A stretch of DNA of 64,000 nucleotides, taken from IMG/VR virus record IMGVR_UViG_3300020429_000529, positions 198,762 through 262,761 of that record; one strand, 5' to 3'. The position numbers were made by a program, and so were the translations under genes. The DNA comes from a virus. Positions 4,286 through 64,000 of this stretch are shown here, in pieces; within the stretch, counting starts at the first letter, position 1, and every line of letters begins with the position of its first letter. The notes under the pieces are model-generated. The model saw only the letters and a program-made list of their open reading frames with translations. It did no database searches and was not told the DNA's origin.

Positions 4286-5088
4286 GCGAAATCCGCCTAC
4301 CCGAGATTCAGCGAGAAAGAATTTGCCATCTTGGGCAGGACACTCTGTGGGAAGATGACGCACATGATGTTGAAGAAGCAAGAGAATACTTGCTGAAGAA
4401 GAGAAGGCTGCCAGAGCGTATCTTGAGAGAGTATCGCTTTGGCTACATGCCTCGCAGAGTTCGGCATGATTGGTCTGAGAGGATCATCATGCCGCTTTAC
4501 GACCCATACGGGGAACTCATTGTTCTGACCAGCCGCAAGTTCAGAGCAACCGAACAAAGAGAGTATCCTCACCTTCATGAGACTTTCAACAAGCGGTTCT
4601 ACTTTTACGGTTTCGATGTCGCCAAGAAAGACATCATGCAAAAAGGAAAGGCCATCGTTGTCGAAGGCCAGTTTGATACCGCGCGCATGCGGGCGGCAGG
4701 ATTCAAGATGACAATTGGCATCTTGGGTTCGGCCTTCACATTTGAGCATGCCTGTATTCTCCGTCGCTATTGTAGCGAAGTTTACCTGCTTTTCGATCAT
4801 GATGAGTCAGGACTAAAAACGCTCCGTCGCTCAATGGAGATGATGGACACCCAAGACATTACAGGCACGTTCGGCATGGACTTCATTCCTGTGATATTGC
4901 CAAAGCAGGAAGATCAGAAGAAGATCGATCCGGACGCTTTCCTTGAGGAGCGAGGCGCTGCAGAAATGCGTGATGTTCTCGCTCAGGCCAAACTCGAAAG
5001 AAAACAGTTCTCCTATGAGGACATAGACCGAAGGATCGAAAAGTATGGCATTTCTCAAGCAGCCAACGGAGGTTCAGGCTCTAAGTAA
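4282..5088 (+). CDS. DnaG-like DNA primase (Toprim domain)
   Basis: The Toprim signature is present: EGQFD (conserved Glu) and DHDESG (DxD). The start overlaps the recA stop (ATGA). Confidence 0.6.
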   Translation: MSEIRLPEIQRERICHLGQDTLWEDDAHDVEEAREYLLKKRRLPERILREYRFGYMPRRVRHDWSERIIMPLYDPYGELIVLTSRKFRATEQREYPHLHETFNKRFYFYGFDVAKKDIMQKGKAIVVEGQFDTARMRAAGFKMTIGILGSAFTFEHACILRRYCSEVYLLFDHDESGLKTLRRSMEMMDTQDITGTFGMDFIPVILPKQEDQKKIDPDAFLEERGAAEMRDVLAQAKLERKQFSYEDIDRRIEKYGISQAANGGSGSK

Positions 5089-8090: not shown

Positions 8091-8494
8091 GCGAAAAGCC
8101 AGGCATCATCAAGATTCGTATGTTTGGATCGCATGATTGCGACGAGTGTACGAAGTTTCGTAAGGCTTTTGGTATCTATTCGATACCTGTTGATTTCATT
8201 GATGCCATGGCTGATGAGAACCAAGAGTTGTGCGATCGGCATGGAGTTGACAAGCTTCCTCATATACAGGCCTTTAGGTCTGGTAGCGACGATATCATCT
8301 ACGAACGGATTGGTTACACATCTCCATTGTCGGTCATCGCAGAGATTGCAGAAGCGAAGGAATCGCAAAGAAGCAACATGACCCTTCAGGGTGTAAGAAG
8401 GCCTTCTCTCGGTCCAAAACTGCCGAAGAGAGGGTACAAGGGTCGAGGATGTAGCGGGTGCCGAAATGCAAAAACAAAAGATCAGTCTGAATGA
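8087..8494 (+). CDS. glutaredoxin/NrdH-like thioredoxin-fold protein
   Basis: CDEC (CxxC) active-site motif near the N-terminus in a thioredoxin-fold-like context (IKIRMFGSHDCDEC...). Confidence 0.45.
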   Translation: MSEKPGIIKIRMFGSHDCDECTKFRKAFGIYSIPVDFIDAMADENQELCDRHGVDKLPHIQAFRSGSDDIIYERIGYTSPLSVIAEIAEAKESQRSNMTLQGVRRPSLGPKLPKRGYKGRGCSGCRNAKTKDQSE

Positions 8495-10379: not shown

Positions 10380-10672
10380 ATGGAGTCGAGAGTTTCATGT
10401 CGTCGTTAGATGCGGACAACAAAGTTCACAAGCTAATGGTCCATGCGGCGACAAACTATCTTGTTACGACGATCAAGTTTTTCGATATCAGTCGTCATGA
10501 GTTCGGTCCACAAGTAACTCGCATTGTGATGGAGATGCATCAAGTTCTTGACGAAAGCGGGTCGATAGAGGTTCTGTGGGAACTTTACGCAGAGCTTGTA
10601 GCCGCTTGCAAGACAGAGGGACTCGATATCACAATGGTTCCATTGAGGGCATTCGGCTGCAGCATCCATTAG
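10376..10672 (+). CDS. hypothetical protein
   Basis: 98-aa ORF, start overlaps uvrD stop. Confidence 0.35.
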   Translation: MNGVESFMSSLDADNKVHKLMVHAATNYLVTTIKFFDISRHEFGPQVTRIVMEMHQVLDESGSIEVLWELYAELVAACKTEGLDITMVPLRAFGCSIH

Positions 10673-10681
10673 GAGGGCTGC

Positions 10682-10987
10682 ATGAACGTCTATGACGAGA
10701 AGATGAGAGAGGCAAGTCGTGAGTTTGTCCGAGCATATCTGAGATTCTACTTCGAGTTTTCGTTTGTTGCTGGCGAAGAGGGAGAGTATCCCGTCAATCT
10801 TGTTGCCGAAGCAAATGACTATCTCATGAAGATCGAAGACGAGAACACATCGGATCATGAACTCGTTGGCATTTACCAGATGGCGCTTACAAGTCTTGGA
10901 AACTCTGGCAATATCGAGGGTTACAACGCTCTGCCAGTACGGTTTTTGAGAGATGACACAGGGATTCCGTATGGGGCAAGTTTTTAG
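10682..10987 (+). CDS. hypothetical protein
   Basis: 101-aa ORF. Confidence 0.35.
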   Translation: MNVYDEKMREASREFVRAYLRFYFEFSFVAGEEGEYPVNLVAEANDYLMKIEDENTSDHELVGIYQMALTSLGNSGNIEGYNALPVRFLRDDTGIPYGASF

Positions 10988-11975
10988 CGAACCAGGCAAG
11001 TTTGACATCTACGTTGGCGATCCGCGAGAAGTATTGCCCGAGTCATTCGAGAAGCAGAGCGTTCATTGTTCTATCACAAGTCCTCCGTACTGGAAGCAGC
11101 GAACATACGGGCACGACGGAGAGATAGGCAATGAGCCAACTCTCGAAAGCTACCTCGACAACGTATGCGGTGTCTTTGATGCTGTTCGACCTGTGCTTCG
11201 CAACGACGGCACGCTCTTTGTGAACATCGGAGATAAGGTTGATGATGGTCAATGCCTGAACATTCCCTTCATGTTTGCTGAAGAGATGAAGCGTCGAGGA
11301 TGGTTTCAGAGACAGTGGATGCCCTGGTTGAAGCGTAACGGCATCCCCAAGGGAGGGCCATCCAAGCCCAACGACAATCTCGAAGTCATCCTCATGTTCT
11401 CGAAAACGAAGGGTAACTATTACTACGATCAGTTGTCGGCGAAAGAACAGGCAGGCTTGACGACTCGTATGTTCCGTAATGGCGATTCGATCACGCTTGA
11501 TCCAGAACCCGATTATTGGGTCTTCGACGTTCTGACTCGCAAGAACTTCTCGCCGCATTTCTCGACGTTTCCGCCGCTCTTGGCAGAGATCATGGTCAGA
11601 GCAGGCACGAGCGACGAGGGCGTTCACCCGACGACAGGCGAGCCCGCTGTCCGCAAGGTAGAGAAGCGTCGGTACGCAACAAGATCTGGTACAAAGTCAA
11701 AAGAAGACAAGAGCGGTATGGCGTTCCGAGACAAGGGTCGTCATATCACAGAGTTCAGCACTCTTGGGTGGGAGTTTTCTCAGCCGATCAAGGTTGATGA
11801 GATGAGTAAGCCCATTGTTCTTGATCCGTTTAGCGGTCTTGCGACAACCGGAGTGGCTTGTATGGATCACAGAAGGTTCTACAAGGGAATCGAGCTTGTT
11901 GAGGAGTTTGCTCAAGAGGGACGAGACAGGCTGTTGACCCATAATCCGCCGGATGTTTTCGATGACGTTCAGTAA
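10953..11975 (+). CDS. DNA methyltransferase (amino-MTase of the N6A/N4C type, beta-class motif order)
   Basis: SPPY motif IV (ITSPPYW) lies upstream of FDPFSGLATTG motif I. No adjacent restriction endonuclease is recognisable, so this looks like an orphan methyltransferase. Confidence 0.8.
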   Translation: MTQGFRMGQVFSEPGKFDIYVGDPREVLPESFEKQSVHCSITSPPYWKQRTYGHDGEIGNEPTLESYLDNVCGVFDAVRPVLRNDGTLFVNIGDKVDDGQCLNIPFMFAEEMKRRGWFQRQWMPWLKRNGIPKGGPSKPNDNLEVILMFSKTKGNYYYDQLSAKEQAGLTTRMFRNGDSITLDPEPDYWVFDVLTRKNFSPHFSTFPPLLAEIMVRAGTSDEGVHPTTGEPAVRKVEKRRYATRSGTKSKEDKSGMAFRDKGRHITEFSTLGWEFSQPIKVDEMSKPIVLDPFSGLATTGVACMDHRRFYKGIELVEEFAQEGRDRLLTHNPPDVFDDVQ

Positions 11976-40836: not shown

Positions 40837-41111
40837 CTCAGGATCGCAGACAGTCTCTTCGCAGGATCAAGAGCAATCAGAGGAGGGTATGGACAGTGAA
40901 CTCGGATGAAGAAAGACGAGCAGTTCATGGGTTCCTTCGGTTGTGTTCATCGATCTTTACGCTCAACGAGATGGATGAACTGAATCAGGAAGATATGCAG
41001 AGAGTGGTAAACGAAATCATTGATGGCAAAACGACGATGGATGATCTAAAGGCGCTCAGCGCGAGCGAACTTTACGATCACATCATAGGACAGGGGCGGC
41101 TTTTCCAATGA
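40833..41111 (+). CDS. hypothetical protein
   Basis: 92-aa ORF. Confidence 0.3.
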   Translation: MTQDRRQSLRRIKSNQRRVWTVNSDEERRAVHGFLRLCSSIFTLNEMDELNQEDMQRVVNEIIDGKTTMDDLKALSASELYDHIIGQGRLFQ

Positions 41112-44949: not shown

Positions 44950-45741
44950 ATGAAACGACTATTTCAAACATTGGATTCAGAAGATAGCTCATACTGGTTT
45001 GGCTTTACAGCAGCAGATGGCTGTCTTGTAACAGGCGGCAACCGAGTTTCATATACTCAATCAGCTAAGGATGAAGCTCATTTATCTCTGCTTGCTTCTC
45101 ATTTCAATCGTCCGCTGTATAGAGGCTCAACGAAGCTGGGAGAGAATACGCATCATTCAGTTAGCTTGCAAATCAACGGACGAGAAACATGGGACGATTT
45201 GTACGAAAAAGGTATGCGTCCGAGAAAATCATTGACCGCAATGAGAGGCGTGATAAGCTCTGTACCTACTGATATGACCCATCATTTTGTTCGAGGGTAC
45301 TTTGATGGGGACGGTTCAATAACAAGCAATAGACTCACAACAGTTGCGAGTTTTGTTGGATCACATGACTTTCTTGAGGAACTGAAACAGGCGATTTTGA
45401 ATCATGTTCCTCTCAATGATAACAAGGTCATTCCTGATGGCACGATTCATAAGGTAGGCTGGTCTGGTAAACAGCAATTGAATCTTTTCCGAGATTGGCT
45501 GTATAGAGATGCAACGGTATTCTTAGCCAGGAAGAAGAATAGATTTGATGCCTTGCGAAGTCGAAAGTATCGAGGAGTTTCTTGGATCAAGAAGCGAAAC
45601 AAGTGGCAATCGATGATAACCATTGATAAGAAGCCGATGTTTCTTGGATACTTTGATTCCGAAGAAGATGCAGCAAAGGCATATGACGAGCAGATTATCA
45701 ATCACGGGCTTGCTCTTCACAGATTGAACTTTCAGCGGTGA
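44950..45741 (+). mobile_element. free-standing LAGLIDADG-family homing endonuclease with a C-terminal AP2 DNA-binding domain
   Basis: Two dodecapeptide motifs (YWFGFTAADGC and VRGYFDGDGSI). The C-terminal YRGVSWIKKRNKWQSMITIDKKPMFLGYFDSEEDAAKAYD matches the AP2 domain. It has its own ATG and is flanked by a duplicated target. Confidence 0.7.
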
Positions 45742-48443: not shown

Positions 48444-48703
48444 TGCATAAGATTGGAGCAGCTAACAGCGTTGCGGATAAGGGCATGGACCTGATCTCGA
48501 AGATTTCTTCGATCTCCGAAACCCTTCGCCAGTTGGCTGTAGAAACAGAGCAAGAGAATCTCGATCAGATCGCAAAGCAAGCGGGCAAGCTTGAATCCTC
48601 ATACGAGGAATACAAGGCATCGTTGCTTTCGGCTATTCAAGAGATAGCTCACGATTCTGATGAGTTTTCTGGCATTCAAGAGAACGATGGCGTTCGTTTG
48701 TAG
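48440..48703 (+). CDS. hypothetical protein
   Basis: 87-aa ORF. Confidence 0.3.
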   Translation: MMHKIGAANSVADKGMDLISKISSISETLRQLAVETEQENLDQIAKQAGKLESSYEEYKASLLSAIQEIAHDSDEFSGIQENDGVRL

Positions 48704-48712
48704 GAGAAACGC

Positions 48713-49045
48713 TTGTCTAAGAATATCGACAGACCCGATGATGGTCTTCCTCCGATGGATGATAGCGGCATCAACAACGATCATATCCTTGACTTGTGCG
48801 ATTTCATCATCACTAAGTCCTGGGAAAAGTACGTCCATAATCAGAACCGTCCGACCGCTGAAGAGCTTTCGATCCGGGATCTGAGGGATCTTGCTTACAC
48901 GATCGGGGCGGTATGGGGCCTTGTCCAAGACATCATCGATCTTGACTCTCGTTTGAGAGAGATGGGCGGGCCGCCTGATATGGATGGGCCTGCTGGTCCT
49001 CCCGGCGGACCAACTTTCGGACCATATGAAGACGAGGATGACTGA
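48713..49045 (+). CDS. hypothetical protein with a Pro/Gly-rich acidic C-terminus
   Basis: 110-aa ORF. Its C-terminus is GGPPDMDGPAGPPGGPTFGPYEDEDD. Confidence 0.3.
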   Translation: MSKNIDRPDDGLPPMDDSGINNDHILDLCDFIITKSWEKYVHNQNRPTAEELSIRDLRDLAYTIGAVWGLVQDIIDLDSRLREMGGPPDMDGPAGPPGGPTFGPYEDEDD

Positions 49046-49242
49046 TGGCAAAGGAAATTGAGTTTCGCATTGGACCTGACGGCAAGATTGACATGGAGCT
49101 AATCGGCTTTCATGGCGATGGTTGCGCCGAAGAAGCCCGTAAGCATGTTGAAAGACTTGGCGAGAGCGTTCATAGCGAGCAGAAGGCTGAGTTTTACGAT
49201 ACCTGCGATACCGATGAGGATCAAGAGCAGTACGGATCGTAA
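49045..49242 (+). CDS. DUF2997-like small protein
   Basis: MAKEIEFRIGPDGKIDMELIGFHGDGCAEEARKHVERLGE matches the pattern I recall for DUF2997 (M..IEF.I.PDGKV..EV.G..G..C...T..LE..LG). Confidence 0.4.
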   Translation: MAKEIEFRIGPDGKIDMELIGFHGDGCAEEARKHVERLGESVHSEQKAEFYDTCDTDEDQEQYGS

Positions 49243-50382
49243 ATGCCTGATTACTACAAGACACTTGGGGTTGATCGCAAGGCCAGCGATGATGAGATCA
49301 AGCGAGCTTATCGCAAGCTTGCTATGAAGTATCATCCTGATCGCAATCCTGATGATGCCGCAGCCGAGAAGAAGTTCAAGGAAGCCGCGGAAGCCTATGA
49401 AGTGCTATCGGATTCCAACAAGAAGCAGCAGTACGACAGATTTGGTACTGTAGGAGGTCAGGGCGCTCGCCGTCGTCCGACCCGTTCGCCGATGGACGAC
49501 ATGTTTGATTTCGGCTTTGGCGGCATGGGAGGTAGAGGGCGTTCCCAAGACCCTTTCGGATCAGTAGACCCGAAAGACATTCCGGGTCTCGATCAGCAGT
49601 CCGTAGCGAATGTGACTCTCGAAGAAGCATTCGAGGGTTGCACAAAGACATGTACCGCTCGTTGGAACGACAAGTGTTCCGATTGCGAAGGCAAGGGCCT
49701 GAAAAAGGATGCCCAATCAACAACGTGCCCTGACTGCAATGGCAGAGGCTTCTTCGTCAAGAGCTTCAGCAAAGGCTCTCAATCTGTTCAGGTGCAGCAA
49801 TCGTGCCCGACTTGCCGAGGCGCGGGAACTTTTGTGAGACCGACCGATCGTTGCAATAAGTGCAAGGGCGAAGGTATGGTCTCCTCTTCGAAGAGTATCG
49901 AGGTCAAGATTCCTTCTGGCGTACTGTCGGGCACTTCTCTCCGTATGAAGAATCAGGGCTTGCTTCGACATGCCGAGGGGCATCGAGGCGATTTGTACGT
50001 TGTTGTGAATGTTTTGCGCCATGAAATCTTCGAGGTCAACAATCGACGAGATGTGAGGCTCCTGTATCCTCTCAGTCCGTCTCAGGCGATCTTTGGGGAT
50101 GAGATCAAGGTTCCGACCCTCAGGGGCGATGAAAGCGTCACAGTCGCTCCTGGGACGCAGCACGGACAGATCCATGCAATACCAAGAGCGGGCATACCTC
50201 ACATTCGGGGCGGCGGCGCTGGTGACATGCTGGTTCAGTACGAAATAGAAATGCCAAAAGTTGAAAACGCCGATAGTAGATCTGTGCCACTGACGGATTT
50301 GGAGAGCAAAGAATCTCTACCAGGCACTTACCTGAAAAAACGTAAGATTGAGAGCTACTTACAGGAGAATTCAAATGAGTGA
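49243..50382 (+). CDS. dnaJ: DnaJ (Hsp40) co-chaperone
   Basis: J-domain ([33 protein letters not shown]), a G/F-rich linker, four CxxCxGxG repeats and a C-terminal substrate domain. Confidence 0.85.
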
Positions 50383-51839: not shown

Positions 51840-52772
51840 ATGCGAGTTCTGGTTACTGGCGGTTGTGGTTTCATCGGGACAAACCTTGTCATTCGATGTT
51901 TCAATGAGGGATGGAAAACTGACGTAGTTGACAACAGCTACGAACATGTTCAACGAGCAACCGAATGCCTACCGTCTGTGAGAATTCTCAATACCGACTT
52001 TGCAAGCGAAGAAGTTCTTGATGCCATACATCACGAGCATTATGACGTAATCTTTCACCAAGCAGCAGTACCCCGAGTCTCGTACTCGGTCGAAGAACCA
52101 GCATATACAACTGACGAGAACCTGTTTAAGACCGTCAGGCTACTCGAAGCGGCGGCGGGCCACTGCCGTCGCTTTGTTTTCGCATCATCTTCATCAGTCT
52201 ATGGAGACACCGAAAGACTGCCGATCGTCGAAGACGATTTCATCGGTTCGGTCACGAAGTCTCCCTATGCGCTGCAGAAGAAGTCGTCGGAAGAGTTCAT
52301 TCGACTCTTCTGCGATCTCTATGAGATGGATGCTGTTTGTCTCAGGTATTTCAATGTCTTTGGACCGCATCAGTATGGTGACAGTCCGTACTCAACGGCG
52401 CTTAGCAGTTGGTGTCATCGCATCAAGGAAGGTACGCCTCTCCGCAAGGATGGAGACGGAGAGCAGAGCCGAGACCTTTGCTATGTTGACAACGTAGTTG
52501 AGGCCAACATTCTCGCTGCAAAGGCTTCTCGAACTTTCAAGGGCGAGGGAATCAACATTGCTTGCGGCGACCGTACATCGAACAATGAGATCCTGGACGC
52601 TTTTGCTAAGAAGTTCAAGTTCGAGATCGATCAGCAGCCGTTTAGAGTTGGAGATATCATGCATACGCAGGCAGACATCTCGTATGCAAAGGAAATGCTC
52701 GGTTACGAGCCGGTTGTACGCTTCTGGGACGGTTTCGAGAAAACGCTCGATTGGTGGGGACTGAATGACTGA
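51840..52772 (+). CDS. NAD-dependent epimerase/dehydratase (extended SDR, UDP-sugar 4-epimerase / 4,6-dehydratase-like)
   Basis: MRVLVTGGCGFIGTNLV and a YALQK-type YxxxK motif. Confidence 0.7.
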   Translation: MRVLVTGGCGFIGTNLVIRCFNEGWKTDVVDNSYEHVQRATECLPSVRILNTDFASEEVLDAIHHEHYDVIFHQAAVPRVSYSVEEPAYTTDENLFKTVRLLEAAAGHCRRFVFASSSSVYGDTERLPIVEDDFIGSVTKSPYALQKKSSEEFIRLFCDLYEMDAVCLRYFNVFGPHQYGDSPYSTALSSWCHRIKEGTPLRKDGDGEQSRDLCYVDNVVEANILAAKASRTFKGEGINIACGDRTSNNEILDAFAKKFKFEIDQQPFRVGDIMHTQADISYAKEMLGYEPVVRFWDGFEKTLDWWGLND

Positions 52773-53451
52773 CGAGAGCTTGCTACATCAGGTTATCTAT
52801 CAGATTGCGAATACGCCGATGCGCAAGTATCCGTATCCGCATCTCATAACGGACAACGTATTTCCCAGCGATTACTACAAGGAGATGCTGCGTCTCTTCC
52901 CAGAGCAGAAGCTCATGGATTCGCATTCTGCTACATACAAGAAGCGAACCATATTCAAGCTAAGCGATATTGATGATTCGTTGATGAGCGATGAGCAGAA
53001 AACCTTCTGGACGGGTTTTAATTCTGCCCTTGGCGGCGATGAGTTTCGGAACTTCATGCTCGACGTTTGGGGAACATCGTTCAGAGAGACATACTCATTC
53101 CATACCTATTCTCGTATTGAGCTTGCTGAGGATATGCCTGGTTATTCGATTGGGGCTCATAAGGATAGTCACAATAAGATGGTAACTATCTTGTTCTATC
53201 TTGCAGAAGACACCAAAAGAAGGGATCTCGGTACGAACATTCTTGTTCCAAAGGGCGAGATTGCCGAAGGCTTTGGTCACGGAAACAACAAGGAGTTCCA
53301 CCAGGCTTCCATGGTCGAGTTCGTCCCGAATCGAATGTTTGCTTTTGCGCCTAACGATTATACCTACCACTCGGTATCGAAGTTGAAGACCAAGCTGCCT
53401 CGTAAGACAGTTCAGTTCAACATTACTCACAAAGACCTTGGGAAGATCTAA
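52765..53451 (+). CDS. putative 2OG-Fe(II) oxygenase-like protein
   Basis: The N-terminal KYPYPHLITDNVFP resembles the PfPHLVIDNFL start of 2OG oxygenases. HKD (HxD) and a later His are present. Weak call. Confidence 0.35.
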   Translation: MTDESLLHQVIYQIANTPMRKYPYPHLITDNVFPSDYYKEMLRLFPEQKLMDSHSATYKKRTIFKLSDIDDSLMSDEQKTFWTGFNSALGGDEFRNFMLDVWGTSFRETYSFHTYSRIELAEDMPGYSIGAHKDSHNKMVTILFYLAEDTKRRDLGTNILVPKGEIAEGFGHGNNKEFHQASMVEFVPNRMFAFAPNDYTYHSVSKLKTKLPRKTVQFNITHKDLGKI

Positions 53452-54509
53452 CCTTCGATATACCCTTTTCGCATCGGGTTGGGAGGAGCAATAACTGCCC
53501 TCTGCTTGGCGAGTGCTTTTTCCAACTCTGCGATCTTCTCTTCGAGAATGGCAATCGGATCGGGTTCATCGAGATCAGATGGTTCTGGCTGGTCGTTGAC
53601 CATAAACAGTTTGTTCGCGTCGATTAGACCAAATCCAGTTGTCACATCGTGCCCGCCGCCTTCCAGATCGATACATGTCCATTTCAGATGCTCTCTGATC
53701 TGTTCGACGGTATCTACGGGCGTTGATCCGCCATGAAGACGATGCTTAGAGAGCATCAAGGCAATGACGCCCGAAACCCAAGGCGTAGCCATGCTTGTTC
53801 CGCTGTATGACTGGTAGACGTTGCCTCCAATGGTTGAAACGATGTCTACGCCTGGCGCTACAAAGTCGAGACCGATGCCCGTATTACTGAACCACGCTCG
53901 AACGTTGTTGCGATCGATTGCCCCTACTGCGATAGCTTCATTGTAGCGAGCGGGAAACTCGACTTGACCTACATCGCCAGCGTTGCCTGCTGCGCAGACG
54001 ACAGGCACATTCAGGGCATAAGCTCGTTTGATAGCCGCATGGATTTCAGGAGACTCGGTAGGTCCGCCAAGAGACATGTTGATAACATCTGCGTTGTTGG
54101 CGAGAGCCAGGTCGATGCCTCGTGCGATATGATGATCGTATCCCCATCCCTCGTCATGCAGAACCTTGATAGGCATGAGTTTGCATTTTGGGGCAATGCC
54201 TGAAACGCCAAAGCTGTTGTTGTTTGCGGCGATAGTCCCGCAGACGTGCGTTCCATGACCATCGGGATCATTGACATTGTTTGAGTTGTCAACGACATTC
54301 CAGACGTAGGGAGCGAAACGATCTTGCAAGTCGTCGTGCTGAACCCAGCACCCGATGTCAAGGACAGCGACGGTAACGCCTTCTCCTTGAGAGTGCGTCC
54401 ACGCTTCGGGTATGTTGTAGTTTGTGATTTGATATCCGAAGGTTTGGCCGAGCGCTACTCGATCAAACTTCTTCATTCGACGCAAGGATGGCAGATAGCG
54501 TTCGCCCAT
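53448..54509 (-). CDS. subtilisin-like serine protease (S8 family)
   Basis: Catalytic triad motifs VAVLDIG (Asp), HGTHVCGTIAA (His) and GTSMATPWVSG (Ser). Confidence 0.8.
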   Translation of the reverse strand: MGERYLPSLRRMKKFDRVALGQTFGYQITNYNIPEAWTHSQGEGVTVAVLDIGCWVQHDDLQDRFAPYVWNVVDNSNNVNDPDGHGTHVCGTIAANNNSFGVSGIAPKCKLMPIKVLHDEGWGYDHHIARGIDLALANNADVINMSLGGPTESPEIHAAIKRAYALNVPVVCAAGNAGDVGQVEFPARYNEAIAVGAIDRNNVRAWFSNTGIGLDFVAPGVDIVSTIGGNVYQSYSGTSMATPWVSGVIALMLSKHRLHGGSTPVDTVEQIREHLKWTCIDLEGGGHDVTTGFGLIDANKLFMVNDQPEPSDLDEPDPIAILEEKIAELEKALAKQRAVIAPPNPMRKGYIEG

Positions 54510-54558
54510 AGCGATGTTTACTATGGGAGACCAGTCGAATCCTTGGGGCGGATATCAT

Positions 54559-54969
54559 TTACGCAGAGAAACTGGACCCGCAGCCGCAACTACTGGTTGC
54601 GTTGGGGTTATTGAATACGAATCCTCGACCCATGATCTCGTCTCGGAAATCGATCTGAGTGCCATTCAGGTAGAGCAGGCTCTTAGGATCGCAGATGACC
54701 GTGACTCCATGCTGCTCGAACTCCTCGTCGGTGTCCTTTTTGCTCTCAGTCAGGTCAAGGAGATAACTGAATCCAGAGCAGCCTCCGCCACGAACTCCCA
54801 CGCGAAGATAAGCGCCTGTATCAAGCTCTTGCTCTTCCGTGATTTTGCGTATTTCTTTTGCGGCGCTTTCCGTGAGAATCACACCCTCGCTCAAGGACTG
54901 TTCCGCATTCGGGACAGATTGTGTCTCTGGGGTAGAGGTATCCTGATTTTCCGGACCTGTATCGCTCAT
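54559..54969 (-). CDS. iscA: IscA/HesB-family Fe-S cluster assembly protein
   Basis: ILTESAAKEI ... GGGCSGFSY ... CGCGSSF are the three conserved Cys of the IscA signature. The N-terminal extension overlaps the upstream ORF, so the true start may be internal. Confidence 0.75.
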   Translation of the reverse strand: MSDTGPENQDTSTPETQSVPNAEQSLSEGVILTESAAKEIRKITEEQELDTGAYLRVGVRGGGCSGFSYLLDLTESKKDTDEEFEQHGVTVICDPKSLLYLNGTQIDFRDEIMGRGFVFNNPNATSSCGCGSSFSA

Positions 54970-55246
54970 AGTTATCCCTCGTCATTCCTGGGTAGCCCGC
55001 TTGGGCATGCGCTCTTCGCCAAACAAAGAACTCGTCTCCGTTGTCAATGGTATCGACTTGACAGTTGTTGCATGCTCGAACCTTGCCATAACCCTTGTAC
55101 GTTCTGATGCTTGAGCAGTTCGTACAAACAGGTAGTCCGCATACAAAGCAAGAAGCCCGCAGAACGGGCATCTGATCTTCATCGAGATTGGCGGGAGCAT
55201 GGCAGCCTTGATCGCAGACGCAGCACGGTTCTCGTTCAGTCGAAGT
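54821..55246 (-). CDS. Cys-rich putative zinc-finger protein
   Basis: Several CxxC pairs (CCVCDQGC, CFVCGLPVCTNC, CNNCQ, CPECG). The ORF track starts at 55321. The 3' end overlaps the IscA 5' region. Confidence 0.35.
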   Translation of the reverse strand, partial: TSTEREPCCVCDQGCHAPANLDEDQMPVLRASCFVCGLPVCTNCSSIRTYKGYGKVRACNNCQVDTIDNGDEFFVWRRAHAQAGYPGMTRDNYERYRSGKSGYLYPRDTICPECGTVLERGCDSHGKRRKRNTQNHGRARA

Positions 55247-55586
55247 CATCGAAAGGTATCCTTGGCAAATCGTATCCGTCCTCGGGAGCATTGTCGGCAA
55301 GGTCTGCCAGAACATCTCCATGGCAAGGTCTGCCCGGATCCGATGGGATCTTGCACCAACATCCGAGCCGTTTGCCTCTTAGTTCGTGTATCGAATCAAG
55401 AAGCTCGGGCTGTTTCATGATCCACTCTCGGTATTTGGCGATAGCCTCGTCCCGAGTATCAACTTGGAACTTTGCCGTGGTGCCTGATTTGTGAGTGAAT
55501 GGGTTGCCCCATTTTGAGCCGCGACCGATGTAGACATCGTATGCGTCAATCTTGCAGTGAACTACCTGAGTCTTTTGAGTCATCAT
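55236..55586 (-). CDS. DUF4326-family protein
   Basis: MMTQKTQVVHCKIDAYDVYIGRGSKWGNPF...GCWCKIP...CHGDVL matches what I recall of DUF4326. The ORF track extends to 55709. Confidence 0.45.
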   Translation of the reverse strand: MMTQKTQVVHCKIDAYDVYIGRGSKWGNPFTHKSGTTAKFQVDTRDEAIAKYREWIMKQPELLDSIHELRGKRLGCWCKIPSDPGRPCHGDVLADLADNAPEDGYDLPRIPFDDFD

Positions 55587-55964
55587 CTTGCCTTTTCTGG
55601 CAGCAGCAACAGCACGAGCCGTTAGACGGATAGTCTCTGCGGAGACGACGTTCCAGCCATTTCGCTTGCACGAACGTCCTGAGGATGTCCCATATCGCCA
55701 TCCCTGCAAATCCCGCTAATGCTATTCCGAACGGCTCCATAGACAGTCTCCGTTGGACAATCGTCCAAGCAAAGTAGGCTCAAGAAACGACTACACAAAA
55801 CGAACCAACTATTAGGACCGCCTTCGTCCTCGTCCATTCTGCGATCTACCTCCTGAAGAGAAAACGGCTCTTCGTGGATCGTGATACATGATTATTGTAC
55901 CAAGAACCTTCTCACCTTGTAGCCGTTTACGCAAGTTTACCAGCTATCTTGTCGAAAAGATAGT

Positions 55965-56600
55965 ATGGCTAACTGGCAAACATATACCACTATCATCGGC
56001 ATAGATCCCGGAATCGGGGGCGGAATCACGATTTTGACTGAAGATTCTGTCTCAGTCCATTACGTTCCTCATATCACAGAGAAGCGCGGGAAAACTAACA
56101 AGAAGAACTACGACAAGCGAGCGATGGCGGATCTTCTGCGTCCTCATGCTGGTCCGAAGACCGTGGCTGTTCTTGAACAGGTGCATGCGATGCGAGGTCA
56201 AGGCGTCACATCGATGTTCAACTTCGGTCGGGGCTTTGGCATTTGGGAGGGGATTTTCGCGGGCTTGGAGTTTGACGTTGAGTTGGTGACTCCGCAAACG
56301 TGGAAGAAGCAATGGGCCGATGAACTGATGGCGAAAGTCGTCAAACCTGAGATTCTCAAGACCAAGACCGCCGAATACAATCGACTCTCTCCAAAGAAGC
56401 GTCTTGAGTACGACGAAGCAGAGAAGGAATGGCAGCAGGAAAAGAAGAAAGCTAAAGAGAACGCTAAGGATGCTGCTCGAACGCTGGCGGCGAAACTGTA
56501 TCCTGACCTGTCCGACCATTTCAAGCTCAAAAAAGACGATGGTAAGGCAGAATCGCTCTTGATCGCTGAACGCAAGAGATTGGAGATTGCAGATGGCTGA
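55965..56600 (+). CDS. RuvC-like Holliday junction resolvase (RNase H fold)
   Basis: The N-terminal IIGIDPGIGGGITIL resembles RuvC ILGIDPGSRVTGYAV. It has a basic C-terminal extension. Confidence 0.45.
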   Translation: MANWQTYTTIIGIDPGIGGGITILTEDSVSVHYVPHITEKRGKTNKKNYDKRAMADLLRPHAGPKTVAVLEQVHAMRGQGVTSMFNFGRGFGIWEGIFAGLEFDVELVTPQTWKKQWADELMAKVVKPEILKTKTAEYNRLSPKKRLEYDEAEKEWQQEKKKAKENAKDAARTLAAKLYPDLSDHFKLKKDDGKAESLLIAERKRLEIADG

Positions 56601-57297
56601 TAGAAGTAAAGAAACGCTGGAAGAAAAGCGGGCCGCGGCTGAAGAAGCAAATCGTATGAATCGAGTAGACAAAGAGGGTCTGCTTGAAAATCTCCTGCGT
56701 ATTGGTACGGGTCACAGTCCTATTTACAAAGACGCAGGAGGGCGAGAGCCGTCAGGGTTCATTGATACATCCGCCGATCGTCCAGATGCGGATGTTGAAG
56801 CAGAGCATATTGACTTCGATGGGTTGATGTCCTCGATGGGCTATGCTCCTCCTCAGACTCAAACCAAGGTTGCATCGATCCAGTCGTTTGGCGACATCGA
56901 TCCCTTGTTCCAGGATATTGCTGAGTTCAAGTTCTCTTCGAGAAACCGAGATGACGAAATCGCCATCTTGCGAGAGGCTATCCGTCAGGGGAAGCTCGTC
57001 ATCATACAGCAGCGTCAGAAGGAAGTCACAAATCAGGTCGTAGAGAACACGAAGAAGGCATCGAAGGGAACGGAGAAGTTCTTCAGGCTCAAGGACGGCG
57101 GTCTTCGAGTCGAGTTTTCGCTACTTGGTCAAAAGTATTCCATGAGCGCTCACGGCATGCTTCAAAGCAACGACTGCCTTTGCTGGCAGGTTGAAGGCGA
57201 TTCTATTCAGGGTCATGTCATGAGGCTTCAGAACGGGCAGTTCCATAACGTCAGTAGCGGTTTTGAAATCAACGTGACTCAGGGCTGGAAGAGCTAA
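56587..57297 (+). CDS. hypothetical protein
   Basis: 236-aa ORF. Confidence 0.35.
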   Translation: MQMADRSKETLEEKRAAAEEANRMNRVDKEGLLENLLRIGTGHSPIYKDAGGREPSGFIDTSADRPDADVEAEHIDFDGLMSSMGYAPPQTQTKVASIQSFGDIDPLFQDIAEFKFSSRNRDDEIAILREAIRQGKLVIIQQRQKEVTNQVVENTKKASKGTEKFFRLKDGGLRVEFSLLGQKYSMSAHGMLQSNDCLCWQVEGDSIQGHVMRLQNGQFHNVSSGFEINVTQGWKS

Positions 57298-58345: not shown

Positions 58346-58510
58346 TGGCTGAACATCATGACAGCATGAAGCGACTCATGCAAAAAGTCGAGGGGAAGAA
58401 AACCGTGCAGAGCAAACCTATTGCAAAGGCTCAGTCGAATACAAGCAAGACAACCACGGTCAATGCCTCTTCAAAGAAACGTGGCTGCGGCTGTAAGCGG
58501 AGAAAGAAGT
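58346..58510 (+). CDS. small Lys/Arg-rich peptide (54 aa), not in the ORF track
   Basis: ATG at 58346 to TAG at 58508-58510. It ends SSKKRGCGCKRRKK. Confidence 0.25.
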
Positions 58511-58511
58511 A

Positions 58512-61165
58512 GATTGGATAGCAACCAGATCATCTCGGATCTGCAGACTGTTGTTCACTCTCGTAATGGAAGATCGATCTCTGATAAAGAGGCTCGATCT
58601 GTCATTAGGGGACTGCTGTCGTATCGCGATACCTCAAAACAACTGCTCTCTGCGCCTCGGCATCTGTTTCAGGCGATCGTTGAAAACGACAGTTTCTACG
58701 GCAAGAGCCTGATCCCCTGCGATACCGTCCAACTTCGTTCAATGCTGTCGGACCAGCAGATCTCAACATGCGGAAGTCTGTGCGTCTTTTCGCTGTCTCT
58801 TGCCAAGAAGCTCTTCAGAGACTACGCTTGCTTCCTGATTCTCAAAGGAGAGCCAGAAGATATCTGTCACGATTTGAAGACCGTTGGCGGGATGGCTGTT
58901 TGCGGTCGAAACCGAATCAACTTCAAGGGTAGAGTTTCGAGTATCGTTGTCAACGATGATGCTCCCTTCGATGAGGTTGAGCGTATTGTTTCCGACACAA
59001 TCCCCGAGTGCCCGATCTACAACGTCAGCTATATTCCTGGCCTTGAGCAGGTCAGGGTTGCCGCTGTAGAGAGGCGATATGTTGTTGAGCTATCGGCTGT
59101 CAACCTGCATAAGATGATTGTCAAGGCTCCTACCGCTGAGGATGCCGTAGACCGAGCTTTGACAAAGCGGTGGAATACAAATCCGGACAACAAGGGCAAG
59201 AGACGATCAGAGCGATACCGTTCAGAGTATTGGAAGAATTCAGGTTTTTGGGACTCAATCGTGCGAGAAGCATCTATCAGAACATCTCAGTCGCAGGCAC
59301 CGTCGCTGCAGCTAACTCCTGAAGAGGAGCAGGTGTTCTCTACGATCATGGCAATCGATAAGCAGTTCGGGCTTGGACAGCAGTACCGAGTTGCGGGCGG
59401 ATGGGTTCGAGATCGATTGCTCGGAACGCAGAGCGACGACATCGACATCGCTCTTGACAAGATGACTGGTCAACAGTTCCGAGAGTATGCGGATCGATAT
59501 GCTCAGCAAAATCCTGATTCGCAGATCGGCAAGAGCTACGTTGTCGATCAGAATCCTGATGCCTCGAAGCATCTTGAAACGACTGCGATTCAGATGGGTC
59601 CGTTCAAGATCGACTTTGTAAATCTTCGCACCGAAGACTACGCCTCGGACAGTCGTATCCCTGAGATGCAGTTTGGATCTCCCGAGGAAGATGCTCAGCG
59701 ACGAGACCTGACGATCAATGCTTTGTTCTACAACATTGGAACAGGTCAGGTTGAGGATTATGTCGGAGGGCTGCAGGATATTCAGTCCATGACGCTCAGG
59801 ACGCCGTTGGATGCTCAACAGACGTTCATGGATGACCCTCTCCGTATGCTGAGGGTACTGAGGTTCCATAGCCGCTACGAGGGCTCTCAGATCGCTCCTG
59901 AGACGCTTGAGGGCATGAGCCATCCCGAGGTCCATGAGGCGTACAGAACGAAGGTCTCGCCCGAACGAGCGGGCCCTGAGATCATGAAGCTGTTTGGCGG
60001 AGCTACGCCCGAGGCATCTGTGCGCGTTCTCTACGAAACCGGCATGGATGCGGCTATTTTGAATCTGCCAGACTTCCAGGGCCTTCAGCCTGCAACCATG
60101 GACCAGAGGAATCCCAATCATCGCCTCAACTGGCTTGAGCATACGCTGAAGGTTGTCAAGAACCTGAATGATCTTCTCGCGCAAAATGGCATCGAAGGCA
60201 AGGATCGATCGCTTGCTCTAATGGGAGCTTGGTTCCATGACTTCGGTAAGTTGCATCCTGATATTCAGCAGCCCAAGGACGGCAATCCTGACCACATGAC
60301 CTATCACGGTCATGAGGATGTCTCCGCTAAGCTGTCCGAGAAGTTCCTCAAGAGTATCGGCGTAGGACGAGACGATCGAGAAGTCGTCAACATGATCGTG
60401 CAAGAACATATGACGCCCCACAACTATGGGAAGGACTGGAACAAGCGACAGATGGGCAAGTTCCGTCAGAAGACATTGATCCCTGGTCAGGACCGAGAGG
60501 ATCTTTGGAAGCTTGTCATGTGGCATGCCCAGGCGGATGCTGCGGCAAAGAGCGAAGACTCGACCCTTGAGGACGTTCCTGAGTATGCCGATCGCTTCAG
60601 CGCTATGCAGACGTACATGGATACCCCTCCGCCTGCGAAGCCTCTTGTTGACGGGAGGAGATTGATTGAACTTTTCCCAACACTAAGTCCTAAGAGCGGG
60701 TTTATTCGAGACGTTCATAGCCGACTGCTCGATGAGCAGGGCGCGGGAAACATTACAGACCAAGCGCAGGCTGAGGCCTATGTTGAGAGTCTCCGTTTGG
60801 AAATCGAATCAAGATACGGCGGAGGTCAGCCCATGGCGTCAAACTGGTACAAGAAAGTCAAAATCGCAGATGCCAGCAGCGCTTCCGGCACTGAGGGTTA
60901 CAACGCTGGCCCAGACAGCAACCCAGAGAGAGATCGATGGGATGGCGTAAAGCAAATGATCCGATATGAACCTGGGGAGAATAGTGTCTTCCGAGTCGGC
61001 GATCGGGTTAAGCGCCGTCAAGTTGGGCTTGGCGACGAACCTCTCATGGGCAAGGTCATTGGAAAGAAGGGGAATCGCATCAAGGTTCGTTGGGACGATG
61101 GCGATGAGGTTGAATCCTTTGATCTCAACGACACCAAGACGACTTTTACGTTGGAGCGGTTTTGA
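58512..61165 (+). CDS. CCA-adding tRNA nucleotidyltransferase / poly(A) polymerase family enzyme (Pol-beta-like head plus HD domain) with about 280-aa N-terminal and about 190-aa C-terminal extensions
   Basis: Head-domain GGWVRDRLLG ... DDIDIALD and RDLTINALFYNI. The HD motif is WFHDFGK...H. The ORF track start at 58421 overlaps the small ORF; a TTG at 58512 is a possible start. Confidence 0.6.
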
Positions 61166-61172
61166 GTTATAG

Positions 61173-64000
61173 ATGCCAACTTCTGATCTAACCATCATCA
61201 ACTTCAAGCAGGAATGGATCGTCGGTCCCGATGTCACGTTTAACTCGGGCTTTGAGGCCGATTCAAATGAACCATTCTTCAGCGCCGTAACGCTCGAAGC
61301 TGAGCGTCCCTTTACCGAGAGGTTGAGGGAGACGATTCAGCCTACTGCTGTTTCTGGCGTCGAAGGTCCAATTGTCTACGGAGGCAACTACAAGCCTGTC
61401 CTGCAGGATATTGAGATCGTTGAAGTTGCAAGTCAGGATCTTGATGCAACGCAGTTGCAAGTCATTCGTCAAAACCTCACGGTCAATGTAAGCCCGGATC
61501 CTGGCGGTCCTGATGTTTTCTTGCTGAACATCACGCCAATCGCTCTTGCAGGAGCGCAGTTCTTTGAGTTGAAGATTCCGTATGAGGAAACGGATATCGT
61601 CAACAACAGCCCTGACCTTACGATTCCGTTCTTGCAGTTTACAGGAACCGACGCCCTTCCGACAGAAACAGTCATAGGACTTAGCCAGTCCAACAACGAG
61701 CTTACTGTCTATGCGGGCAACGAGGTTATCACCGAACTCGTTCTTGAAGTTAATGATATCACAGCAGGAACTCGAACTTTTACTTCTAAGACGGCTGAGG
61801 TAACAGCGACAGATCTGGATATCAACTGGGCTGAGGACATCAACGGTCAAACATTGTTGATGATGGATAATCCAGGAGATACATTCCCTCAGTTCGTGCA
61901 GGCCACTTCTCTTGGTAGTAACACGATCGGCGTCAACTATTACTATTTGATGACAATCGATCCGAATACAGATACCATTAGCGCATTAGTCAACAAAGAA
62001 GTTGCTGGTGTAGAGGGCGGATCATTCGAAACGTCATCGACAGGCGTTCCTCTTTTCTCAATTTGTGTTGGGCCTGGTATTTTTGTTAGCGTCAATAAGG
62101 GTTCTCAAGGCGCATCAGGTATGCTTACTGTTACGGTTAACAGACAAAGCCTGCCAACTCCTGGAAACTTCAGAAGAAGCCTTCCTGTTATAGCCTTCAG
62201 AAACAATCACTCTTTCAATCAGGCTCTTTCAGTAACATGCGGAACAAGCACAATTGAACTCTCATCGACAAAAGATGCGATAGGCACAGTCGCTAATGCA
62301 ACGGCGATAGTCGATGCAGACATGACTGTAACCGAACTCATTACGGCGCTGAATGATGCTATTGCCACAGTGCCCGAATGGGTTCCCTGGTTCGAAGCTG
62401 TTTTGTTTGAAGGAGAATGGCAGCCAATTGCAAGTGCAGTTCTTTACATCAATGATCTTGCTATCAATGCCAAGTACGGTAATAACACAACAGGATTGCT
62501 TGATGGCATTAGGCATGGAACCTACATTATTCCAGATAACGGAGGCAACATTCCGACAAGGTTGCCGTCAGACCCTACTTCATTTGCTCTTCCTCTTGAG
62601 GTAGAACAAGGAACTGGTCTTCCTATCTATAGCGAATCGTATGATGCTTCTGATCTGAGTATCACAATCAAAGATGTTTTCGATGACCTTATTGAAAACC
62701 TTCCTGCAGGTTTCTTCCGCTTTTACCAGGGATCGACTTTTGCTGGAAGCGCATTCAATAACATTGACTTCACAACATTTGTTGATACGCCAATTGAATA
62801 CTACGAGAATCTTCCAATCGCAGCGATTAACGATGGAACGGTTTCCGTAAGCGGCAACAATGCAAGCAATAATGTCATCCATCTACAATGGATAAAGTTT
62901 GACCATACGTTCGAAACAGCGGTCGGTCAGTATACTTACTCCATCGCAACAGATACTATGTCTACTGTTGCTGCGGCTCTCGAAGCGGACGCTGATTTTA
63001 CCTCAGTCGGCGCATCGATCGAAGCAGGACTCCTGCTTGGAGATGCTCCCGTAGGCCTGATTGATAGACCAGAAACCATTACTGTCAATTCGATGCTGGC
63101 TCCGTTTGTGCTGACCGTCAAAGGAGAGCCCGGACAATCAATCTCTGCAAGCTCGACATTTTCATTGGCAGGCAAAACCGTTAATGAACTGATCTCTGAG
63201 TTCAATATCGACGCTGATATCGGCGGAGCTTTTGAAGCGGTTCTGCTGAATAGCACAAGAGGCAACGCTTCGGCAACTTCACTTATTGAAGCAGGCCCCC
63301 TTGATATCGATGAGCCACCTTCATCGCCAGCGAAGTTTGCTGGTTCGTTTACTCGACCTCGTTTTTCTCAGTACGATCTGTCAACTTTCCCAACCCTTGC
63401 CTCTCTGGCGACTCGCATCAACAGCGATTGGAGCGGAGATGGATTGTCTGTATTGGTCCGCTCTGAAACAAATCCGTTTCCAGATGCTATCTCAGCCAAT
63501 CTCCTTGAGGTCATTCCTGCTGTCTCGATTTACGATACGGTTGTTGTCTTCAATGGAGTTGTCAAAGAAGTTGCAACGCCAGAGGCTCCAAGAGAAGATG
63601 TCACGCTATCTTTCAACATCAAGTTTGCTGCTGGCGGCGTACCTTTCGAAGAAACAGGCATTCAAGTTGCGCTTGGAGGATACGAGAGCGAGGGAACGTT
63701 CTTCCCCAACAATGCTCCAAACTCATTCTTCGAACCTGGTTACAATACTCTCTTCCCGATAACGTTTAGCGTCGTTGATGCTGATACGATCTATCTGCTT
63801 GTGCGAACCCGTAAGAACCTTGACGGAACGATTTATCTATCTGAAGTCAATGATTATGCTGGTCGCATAACATACACAAACGGATCGAGAGGCGAACAAG
63901 CCTCGCCCTTCATCCCTACCGAACCGCAGTTCGTTGATGCATGGGAAGAGACAAATCTTGGCGATCCTCCTACGGATCAAGTTCCTGTTGTTGTCGCTTT
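61173..64000 (+). CDS. large virion structural protein (tail fibre or other structural component), 3' end outside the window
   Basis: I translated by hand from the ATG at 61173 and it stays open to the window end (more than 940 codons). It is absent from the ORF track, presumably because no stop lies inside the window. The composition is rich in T/S/N/G/A and low in charge, typical of fibre or beta-rich structural proteins. Confidence 0.45.
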   Translation, partial: MPTSDLTIINFKQEWIVGPDVTFNSGFEADSNEPFFSAVTLEAERPFTERLRETIQPTAVSGVEGPIVYGGNYKPVLQDIEIVEVASQDLDATQLQVIRQNLTVNVSPDPGGPDVFLLNITPIALAGAQFFELKIPYEETDIVNNSPDLTIPFLQFTGTDALPTETVIGLSQSNNELTVYAGNEVITELVLEVNDITAGTRTFTSKTAEVTATDLDINWAEDINGQTLLMMDNPGDTFPQFVQATSLGSNTIGVNYYYLMTIDPNTDTISALVNKEVAGVEGGSFETSSTGVPLFSICVGPGIFVSVNKGSQGASGMLTVTVNRQSLPTPGNFRRSLPVIAFRNNHSFNQALSVTCGTSTIELSSTKDAIGTVANATAIVDADMTVTELITALNDAIATVPEWVPWFEAVLFEGEWQPIASAVLYINDLAINAKYGNNTTGLLDGIRHGTYIIPDNGGNIPTRLPSDPTSFALPLEVEQGTGLPIYSESYDASDLSITIKDVFDDLIENLPAGFFRFYQGSTFAGSAFNNIDFTTFVDTPIEYYENLPIAAINDGTVSVSGNNASNNVIHLQWIKFDHTFETAVGQYTYSIATDTMSTVAAALEADADFTSVGASIEAGLLLGDAPVGLIDRPETITVNSMLAPFVLTVKGEPGQSISASSTFSLAGKTVNELISEFNIDADIGGAFEAVLLNSTRGNASATSLIEAGPLDIDEPPSSPAKFAGSFTRPRFSQYDLSTFPTLASLATRINSDWSGDGLSVLVRSETNPFPDAISANLLEVIPAVSIYDTVVVFNGVVKEVATPEAPREDVTLSFNIKFAAGGVPFEETGIQVALGGYESEGTFFPNNAPNSFFEPGYNTLFPITFSVVDADTIYLLVRTRKNLDGTIYLSEVNDYAGRITYTNGSRGEQASPFIPTEPQFVDAWEETNLGDPPTDQVPVVVA

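Follow-up and report, generated by a model that had tools for sequence, protein, structure and literature searches.

The DNA considered here (the window) is a 64,000-nucleotide (nt) stretch of a viral genome, positions 198,762 to 262,761 of IMG/VR record IMGVR_UViG_3300020429_000529, and its subject is a block of six genes at 53448-55837, all on the minus strand. Read leftward, they are ORF71 (55622..55837), a gene for a small hydrophobic poly-Cys protein of 64 amino acids (aa; 55546..55740), a DUF4326 gene (55236..55586; 115-116 aa), a gene for a Cys-rich, FYVE-like zinc finger (54821..55249, from its first plausible ATG; 142 aa), a gene for an A-type iron-sulfur (Fe-S) carrier of the IscA/ErpA family (54559..54969; 136 aa), and a gene for a subtilisin-family (S8) serine protease (53448..54509; 353 aa). 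Consecutive genes overlap by 119, 41, 14, and 149 nt, after which a 49-nt spacer precedes the protease gene. In every overlap the downstream gene lies in frame +1, and, as read from the sequence, a Shine-Dalgarno (SD)-like motif stands before five of the six start codons, the exception being that of the protease.

An earlier note on this DNA had described a four-gene island (S8 protease, IscA, Cys-rich protein, and DUF4326) followed by 250 to 380 nt of noncoding sequence. All four open reading frames (ORFs) exist, with Pfam confirming the families of the S8, IscA, and DUF4326 products, and the 3' end of the Cys-rich ORF does overlap the 5' region of iscA, by the 149 nt given above. The block ends at 55837, however, rather than at 55586 or 55709: most of the supposed noncoding region is coding, since it holds the conserved 64-aa and 71-aa ORFs, and what is left is a divergent intergenic region of 127 nt (55838..55964) between the ORF71 ATG (55837) and the ATG of a plus-strand RuvC-like gene (55965). 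Nor is it established that the longest noncoding stretch of the window lies here, as a crude gene set leaves a 271-nt gap at 40837-41107, filled by a 92-aa ORF of uncertain status.

The same note had called these the only minus-strand genes in 64 kb, and so we found them. A crude 3-periodic Markov gene finder, trained on long plus-strand ORFs, confined minus-strand genes to this block over the whole window, and the gene calls of the source assemblies agree for 43.4-64 kb. Minus-strand ORFs at 10433-11008, 48599-49264, and 61263-61850 were rejected as genes, being shadows of plus-strand genes. A composition-based coding score fails for the Cys-rich and small hydrophobic genes of the block, for which it is negative or near zero, and was not used against them.

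Related loci and their cargo

We take the window to belong to an uncultured marine phage of ~500 kb. An S8 protein with exactly the same residues is encoded by at least 22 public contigs, including short Tara Oceans contigs and two contigs of ~500 kb (ENA ERZ17089788, 498,610 bp, and ERZ25074452 ctg12106_378x_c, 502,461 bp). Window positions 53000-56700 recur with 100% identity at four loci, with a single base deletion at one, and with 98.4% identity at another (L002). The window's genes include those for UvrD, RecA, topoisomerase IA, clamp-loader, DnaJ, and CCA-adding enzyme, besides the PHROG-type RuvC-like resolvase. No phage in GenBank is close at the DNA level, the sole match being a DUF4326 patch of 130-160 nt in Bacillus phages.

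The flanks of the block are conserved plus-strand genes. On the right, its divergent partner encodes a RuvC-like Holliday-junction resolvase (55965..56600; phrog_1770, E = 3e-31); on the left lies an NAD-dependent epimerase/dehydratase gene (51840..52772; PF01370, E = 1.8e-49), followed by a lineage-specific plus-strand gene of 228 aa (52765..53451) with weak similarity to 2-oxoglutarate-Fe(II) oxygenases (PF13640, E = 1.1e-3, below the cut-off). Epimerase, RuvC-like gene, and the two genes beyond it are common to three related lineages: L009 (a 229-kb contig), L012/L095 (488 kb), and L094. RuvC-like identity to the window is 65% in L009 and 49% in L012; epimerase identity is 57-66% in L009, where the gene is intein interrupted, and 59% in L012 and L094. 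In L009, L012/L095, and L094 alike, an inverted block headed by the ORF71/small-protein pair lies between epimerase and RuvC-like gene; the 228-aa gene is absent, and the epimerase gene directly abuts the block. These relatives thus keep the inverted block at the same position with different cargo.

The cargo varies widely. The L009 block is 6.6 kb long and holds DUF4326, a 97-aa ORF, IS200/605 TnpA and TnpB, a zinc-ribbon protein, a LAGLIDADG ORF, IscA, a SET-domain protein, a class II aminoacyl-tRNA synthetase-like fragment, and S8, while the cargo of L012/L095 and L094 consists only of a 90-aa ORF and a family 15 glycosyltransferase. The FYVE-like gene is absent from all three lineages. Homologues of the S8 protein that are ~50% identical occur in two other huge contigs, co-oriented with their neighbors and in unrelated neighborhoods. 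Scanning Joint Genome Institute metagenomes with the RuvC-like alignment yielded a single new variant, L094.

Several details of the relatives were noted in passing. The L009 IS200/IS605-type element is complete (3107-4911), with a Y1 transposase (PF01797, E = 5e-34) and TnpB/OrfB_IS605. The L009 epimerase gene (8994-11006) carries an intein with a LAGLIDADG domain, so that its product has 670 aa versus 310 aa in the window. The L012 glycosyltransferase (8452-9327) matches Glyco_transf_15 (glycolipid 2-alpha-mannosyltransferase) at E = 2.5e-30; the Glyco_transf_15 and SET families are mainly eukaryotic.

Compositionally, the block does not stand out: GC is 0.51-0.52 in its genes versus 0.493 ± 0.024 in plus-strand genes, GC at third codon positions (GC3) is 0.53-0.57 versus 0.567 ± 0.044, and codon log-likelihoods likewise show no anomaly against the flanks. 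An invertible segment or mobile-element borders were considered and rejected, as repeats of 14-20 nt occur at chance level with none bracketing the block; no recombinase was found among the neighboring genes. The arrangement is old rather than a recent insertion, because the RuvC-like proteins of the lineages that have it are no more than 49-65% identical and because the IscA proteins of the window and L009 share only 59% identity. Of the proposal that the block is an independently acquired or regulated cassette, then, a separately oriented accessory unit with a captured iscA survives; a recent insertion and a compositional signal do not.

Genes and products of the block

ORF71 was called by the source assemblies, and the 64-aa gene, which overlaps it (119 nt) as well as the start of DUF4326 (41 nt), was missed by public gene calls. 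The first ~34 aa of ORF71 (an acidic MD start, a hydrophobic helix, and DD...YG) are conserved in L009, L012, and L094. L012 and L094 are 85% identical in DNA, and the following substitution counts are readings of that pairwise alignment. Codon by codon, ORF71 codons 17-33 show 10 synonymous changes and 1 nonsynonymous change; within the overlap, all 8 changes are nonsynonymous in the ORF71 frame, and all 8 substitutions in the first 36 codons of the 64-aa gene are synonymous. From these patterns we conclude that both genes are real, the C-terminal part of ORF71 where it overlaps the next gene looking unconstrained. The 64-aa protein consists of a hydrophobic helix, a conserved W-D-x-x-R-x-F-x-Q motif, and a Cys cluster (CCCCC), and has homologues at the same position in L009 (2037-2228), L012 (9606-9803), and L094. 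A GGAG lies 7 nt before its ATG, which is invariant in three lineages. Pfam searches gave no match for either protein, nor did a PHROG search for the smaller one.

This pair recalls the Rz/Rz1 spanins, in which likewise the second of two small genes starts inside the first in the +1 frame and its product is membrane associated and contains Cys. The resemblance is limited to architecture: the pair in the block has no lipobox, its sizes and sequence features do not fit, and lysis genes are not nearby. At one Tara locus (L006), a 1-nt deletion in an A4 run at window position 55596 truncates the tail of the poly-Cys protein, and the gene caller then lengthens DUF4326, to 144 aa. Either the deletion is a sequencing error or it reflects a genuine frameshift variant.

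The DUF4326 protein is a clear family member (PF14216, 89.4 bits against a gathering score of 25, E = 2.5e-25; phrog_464, E = 1.4e-37) and is 57% identical to its L009 homologue. DUF4326 proteins form a rhodanese-phosphatase-like clade predicted to process phosphates on ADP-ribose derivatives, with a predicted role in counter-defense (Iyer, Aravind and colleagues, PMC9503650, PMC7824862); by that prediction, the protein in the block would process ADP-ribose-derived molecules and might counter host defenses. DUF4326 is common in phages, and like many members the window protein is small, stand-alone, and phage encoded; it differs in being unfused to Macro, NADAR, or SLOG domains, and genes for these are not adjacent.

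The Cys-rich ORF is uncalled in the source assemblies. A word-indexed protein search with it came back empty, because gene callers skip this ORF; an exhaustive HMMER search returned 201 homologues, of which 40 reach E ≤ 1e-10, the best being 59% identical over residues 6-87. Compared with L002, the ORF shows 7 synonymous and 2 nonsynonymous changes, and 3 changes inside the overlap are silent in its frame yet alter IscA residues. Judged by these sequence comparisons, it is a real gene. Its product has a zinc finger core (aa 1 to ~100) and a tail (aa ~101-142), the last 149 nt of the gene, from codon 94 on, overlapping iscA. In the family alignment eight Cys (C9, C16, C34, C37, C42, C45, C60, and C63) and R58 are invariant, and they form the eight-Cys cross-brace pattern with a terminal R-V/L-C motif.

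Both this cross-brace and the R-[LV]-C-x-x-C ending are shared with FYVE fingers (EEA1, Rim2, rabphilin-3A, and RUFY1). Pfam FYVE (PF01363) gave subthreshold matches in 20 of 31 family members (best E = 2.2e-5); none reached the gathering score, and the window protein itself had no FYVE match at E ≤ 0.1. The family profile matches the EEA1 FYVE domain in the PDB at E = 5e-4. An AlphaFold2 model has predicted local distance difference test (pLDDT) values of 89-97 for aa 11-100 and 55-69 beyond, and its top Foldseek matches are the FYVE-type fingers of Rim2, rabphilin, and RUFY1, all weak and not significant. True FYVE domains bind phosphatidylinositol 3-phosphate (PI3P) through the motifs WxxD and R(R/K)HHCR. 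Both are absent from the family alignment, which has x-x-x-C-F-x-C-G at the equivalent position, and for this reason we label the protein FYVE-like rather than FYVE. The family differs further in that its members are stand-alone proteins of ~80-110 aa on phage-like contigs, with conserved helices after the finger (..AGYP..T...); the two homologues that we viewed in context sit on such contigs. A tblastn search of GenBank phages with the zinc finger core gave no match.

The tail of the window protein is unusual for the family, with 79 residues after the last CxxC versus a median of 36. A CxxC within the tail was considered as a family feature and rejected, being present in 5 of 136 homologues. 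Because of this length and the rarity of the tail CxxC, the last 40-50 residues, which overlap iscA, are lineage specific.

IscA matches PF01521 (Fe-S_biosyn; E = 8e-21) and, at 128 bits against a cut-off of 58.8, TIGR00049, which places it among the A-type carriers; its cluster ligands Cys64, Cys128, and Cys130 (C-x(n)-C-G-C) are invariant. It scores 114.5 bits against the ErpA equivalog model NF010147, whose cut-off is 117, and its nearest named homologues are annotated ErpA. A GAGGG stands 6 nt before its ATG (54969). It would supply Fe-S clusters to phage or host apo-enzymes. Its closest metagenomic relatives are 67-81% identical, those with names all coming from Phycisphaerae/Planctomycetota metagenome-assembled genomes. 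When 185,579 species were searched, each represented by a single genome, the top 80 matches (59-78% identity) were almost all from Phycisphaerales, Phycisphaeraceae, or Planctomycetota. The phage protein is 66-77% identical to ten of its closest metagenomic homologues, which average 77.5% among themselves, so that the bacterial proteins are about as similar to it as to one another. Its T/S/P/Q-rich N-terminal extension is common to Phycisphaerales-type proteins; it differs from them in being phage encoded, in an extension ~12 aa longer, and in that its first ~50 codons are also read as zinc finger tail.

With cellular closest homologues and a phage genome context, iscA has the hallmarks of a host-derived auxiliary metabolic gene. 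Its nearest relatives, their similar N-terminal extension, and the mutual identities suggest a host clade as well: as far as sequence relationships tell, the gene is captured from Phycisphaerales-type bacteria, and the phage family probably infects Phycisphaerales (Planctomycetota). No host assignment for such marine megaphages was found in the literature searched, and the Mar_Mega_1 paper reports none. An uncalled LAGLIDADG-type ORF in L009 (5987-6460; phrog_5046, E = 8e-20) overlaps the annotated iscA start there, so that an upstream gene reads through the 5' end of iscA in both lineages.

The protease has a canonical S8 catalytic domain (PF00082, E = 1.7e-58, 198.7 bits against a cut-off of 21.8, from residue 42; phrog_3677, E = 1.7e-79), with the catalytic triad and oxyanion Asn (Asp51, His85, Asn176, and Ser239) invariant in a 41-sequence alignment. 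Its mean pLDDT is 90.9 (about 80 for N-terminal strands at 3-5 and 10-16), and Foldseek aligns the model with subtilisins at template modeling (TM) scores of 0.93-0.95, including the precursor of an intracellular subtilisin (ISP; 2wv7) over 315 columns. The earlier note had called it a secreted-type subtilase. By inspection there is no signal peptide, the N terminus (MGERYLPSLRRMKKFDRVALGQ) lacking a hydrophobic core, and Pfam finds the catalytic domain alone, with no I9 prodomain; what precedes the core is a short N-terminal extension with YLPSLRR, and what follows is an acidic linker and a C-terminal helix. This is the architecture of the ISPs, and ISPs 2x8j/2wv7 align from residue 13.

In ISPs, an inhibitory LIPY/F motif, [LVI]-[IFLV]-P-[YFH], lies near residues 6-9 (PMC6220982). 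Most homologues of the window protease have x-L-P-[PSD] some 45 residues N-terminal to the catalytic Asp. In the window this motif is Y5-L6-P7-S8, of which only L-P fits the strict pattern; its place, in predicted beta strands at residues 5-8, is nevertheless close to that of LIPY/F in B. clausii ISP (2X8J/2WV7) and Planococcus ISP (PMC6220982), with which the protease also shares the S8 core and Asp/His/Ser triad. Against this likeness, the core is equally close by sequence to secreted subtilisin BPN' (PDB, E = 5e-55), the acidic linker and C-terminal helix are extra, and the protein is phage encoded. It thus resembles the ISPs in architecture and is not a strict member. By analogy with them, it would be a cytoplasmic subtilisin kept inactive by its N-terminal extension until processed.

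A subtilase together with an Fe-S carrier was thought unusual for a phage. GenBank has 57 phage records with a stand-alone S8 gene, most of them from large Bacillus phages, and such genes are also present on several metagenomic contigs of 180-580 kb; IscA has its own PHROG and occurs in two uncultured phages of ~600 kb, 45-47% identical to that of the window and the nearest in GenBank phages. S8 peptide patterns had no match in IMG/VR, and PADLOC defense-system models gave generic subtilase matches only. Several ~50%-identical S8 homologues on 180- to 210-kb contigs (P0005, P0006, P0008, and P0014) also carry a lamin-tail domain (PF00932), so that in large phages this S8 subfamily has come to be part of different architectures.

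Interpretation of the locus

We consider it likely that the six genes form an accessory operon, divergently oriented and sited at a plasticity hot spot that is old and conserved in a family of ~230- to 500-kb marine phages. Transcription would presumably start in the 127-nt gap beside the RuvC-like gene, and a single transcript would run leftward through ORF71, the poly-Cys protein, DUF4326, the FYVE-like zinc finger, IscA/ErpA, and the intracellular-type subtilisin, and the converging plus-strand gene would mark the end of the operon. ORF71 and the poly-Cys gene would be the conserved head of the locus and everything downstream exchangeable cargo, gained and lost by lineage through capture of host genes (IscA) and through insertions, among them IS200/605 and homing endonucleases. 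Most likely, each cargo protein acts on the infected cell independently of the others. The long overlaps are best explained by independent initiation at SD-preceded ATGs, possibly with translational coupling.

At the left border (53448-53451), the protease gene and the converging 228-aa gene share the stop codons CTAA, a 4-nt stop-stop overlap. With zero spacer and no convincing terminator, converging transcripts would collide here.

The earlier note had placed divergent promoters upstream of the block. A divergent gap exists, although at 127 nt it is smaller than supposed; the corresponding gaps in L012 and L009 are about 95-125 nt. The gap presumably carries one or more promoters, and it holds the sole extended -10 match in the window (TGGTACAAT, minus strand, 55902-55894), in the correct orientation. 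A structured RNA or riboswitch was rejected, with no Rfam match at E ≤ 1 and a fold z-score of -1.3 (55741-55964).

Several points weigh against the operon and hot-spot reading. A sigma-70 scan of the 127-nt gap found no consensus site, and terminator-like matches are near chance level; the extended -10 match TGGTACAAT had been noticed before testing and is post hoc, and intergenic sequence is poorly conserved across relatives. The hot spot is drawn from a small sample, with no more than three or four related lineages recovered. The host rests on one gene, iscA. Finally, DUF4326, IscA, and S8 occur together in two of the three lineages (the window and L009), so that some functional linkage among them is possible.

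The reading closest to the earlier note, that a foreign cassette (a mobile island or moron) was recently and independently acquired by insertion in reverse orientation, strikes us as unlikely. The clearly bacterial, Phycisphaerales origin of IscA speaks for it, as do the IS200/605 element and LAGLIDADG endonuclease in the L009 block and the lineage-specific plus-strand gene at the border. However, the block does not depart from the range of its flanks in GC, GC3, or codon usage, the window was found to contain neither an integrase or transposase nor direct or inverted repeats flanking the block, and the depth of divergence among lineages sharing the block and its two leading genes (RuvC-like, 49-65%; IscA, 59% between window and L009) does not fit a recent event. 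That the strand switch is an assembly artefact, a mis-oriented segment, has practically no probability: different projects independently assembled at least six contigs with this same arrangement, among them the two ~500-kb contigs and Tara contigs spanning both junctions, diverged relatives share it, and we found no point in support.

An integrated cysteine/metal module, in which the poly-Cys protein, zinc finger, and IscA handle metal or Fe-S and the protease processes one of them, would account for three of the six products being Cys-rich or cluster binding, for genes translationally entangled by long overlaps, and for the joint occurrence of DUF4326, IscA, and S8 just mentioned. It is improbable all the same, because the cargo genes are not co-conserved: L009, L012, and L094 lack the FYVE-like gene, L012 retains the small-gene pair without IscA and without S8, unrelated genes and mobile elements split IscA and S8 from that pair in L009, and FYVE-like and S8 homologues are found elsewhere without partners. 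Programmed +1 ribosomal frameshifting at the overlaps, which would fuse ORF71 to the small protein and the zinc finger to IscA, is very improbable. Although the downstream gene is in the +1 frame at every overlap, and a conserved CTATGGA junction marks where selection leaves the ORF71 frame for the +1 frame, each downstream gene has its own ATG with an SD-like motif at initiation distance, that of the small protein being invariant in three lineages, and, read from the sequence, the junctions have no slippery or stop-codon-type +1 shift motif. Moreover, FYVE-like homologues are stand-alone and end near residue 87-100 (none of 30 inspected is fused to IscA), and host IscA proteins, which have a comparable N-terminal extension, begin at starts of their own.

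The operon at a plasticity hot spot that we favor adds one more case to a well-known class of features in phage genomes, and current thinking on how such islands work is unchanged by it. Like the hypervariable accessory or auxiliary-metabolic-gene regions and moron cargo of other phages, the island has a fixed position between conserved genes, lineage-variable cargo, a host-derived metabolic gene, homing endonucleases and an insertion sequence (IS) element in relatives, and phage-like composition. It differs from them in lying wholly on the opposite strand of an otherwise unidirectional 64 kb, in being headed by a conserved pair of overlapping micro-genes, and in having cargo chained by unusually long out-of-frame overlaps. 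A bolder and doubtful version would make the strand switch and the two micro-genes a dedicated site for cargo capture and expression in Phycisphaerales-infecting megaphages, with captured genes wired in by out-of-frame overlap. If so, new coding sequence would have been born here: the 40- to 50-aa zinc finger tail would be overprinted on the 5' end of the captured iscA and may already be under selection.

For annotation, three genes or gene parts prove to be missing or wrong in public calls for a cosmopolitan ~500-kb marine phage: a gene of the FYVE-like zinc finger family (~200 members) and the conserved overlapping micro-gene pair. IscA offers a concrete, testable host hypothesis (Phycisphaerales) for this megaphage lineage. 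The locus also provides a modest example from nature of how cargo turns over, and of long overlaps that code twice although the genome has space to spare.

Other observations in the window

ARAGORN finds no tRNA genes in the whole window. The CCA-adding/poly(A) polymerase-HD protein encoded at 58421-61165 has 914 aa (900 aa in the source calls), with a ~300-aa N-terminal region for which Pfam gives no match. A plus-strand gene at 44950-45741 encodes a 263-aa protein of homing-endonuclease type (LAGLIDADG_3 and AP2); it is present in the window and in L001 and absent from L002, where the 452-aa and 259-aa genes that surround it in the window stand adjacent, and it represents a presence/absence polymorphism of a mobile endonuclease.

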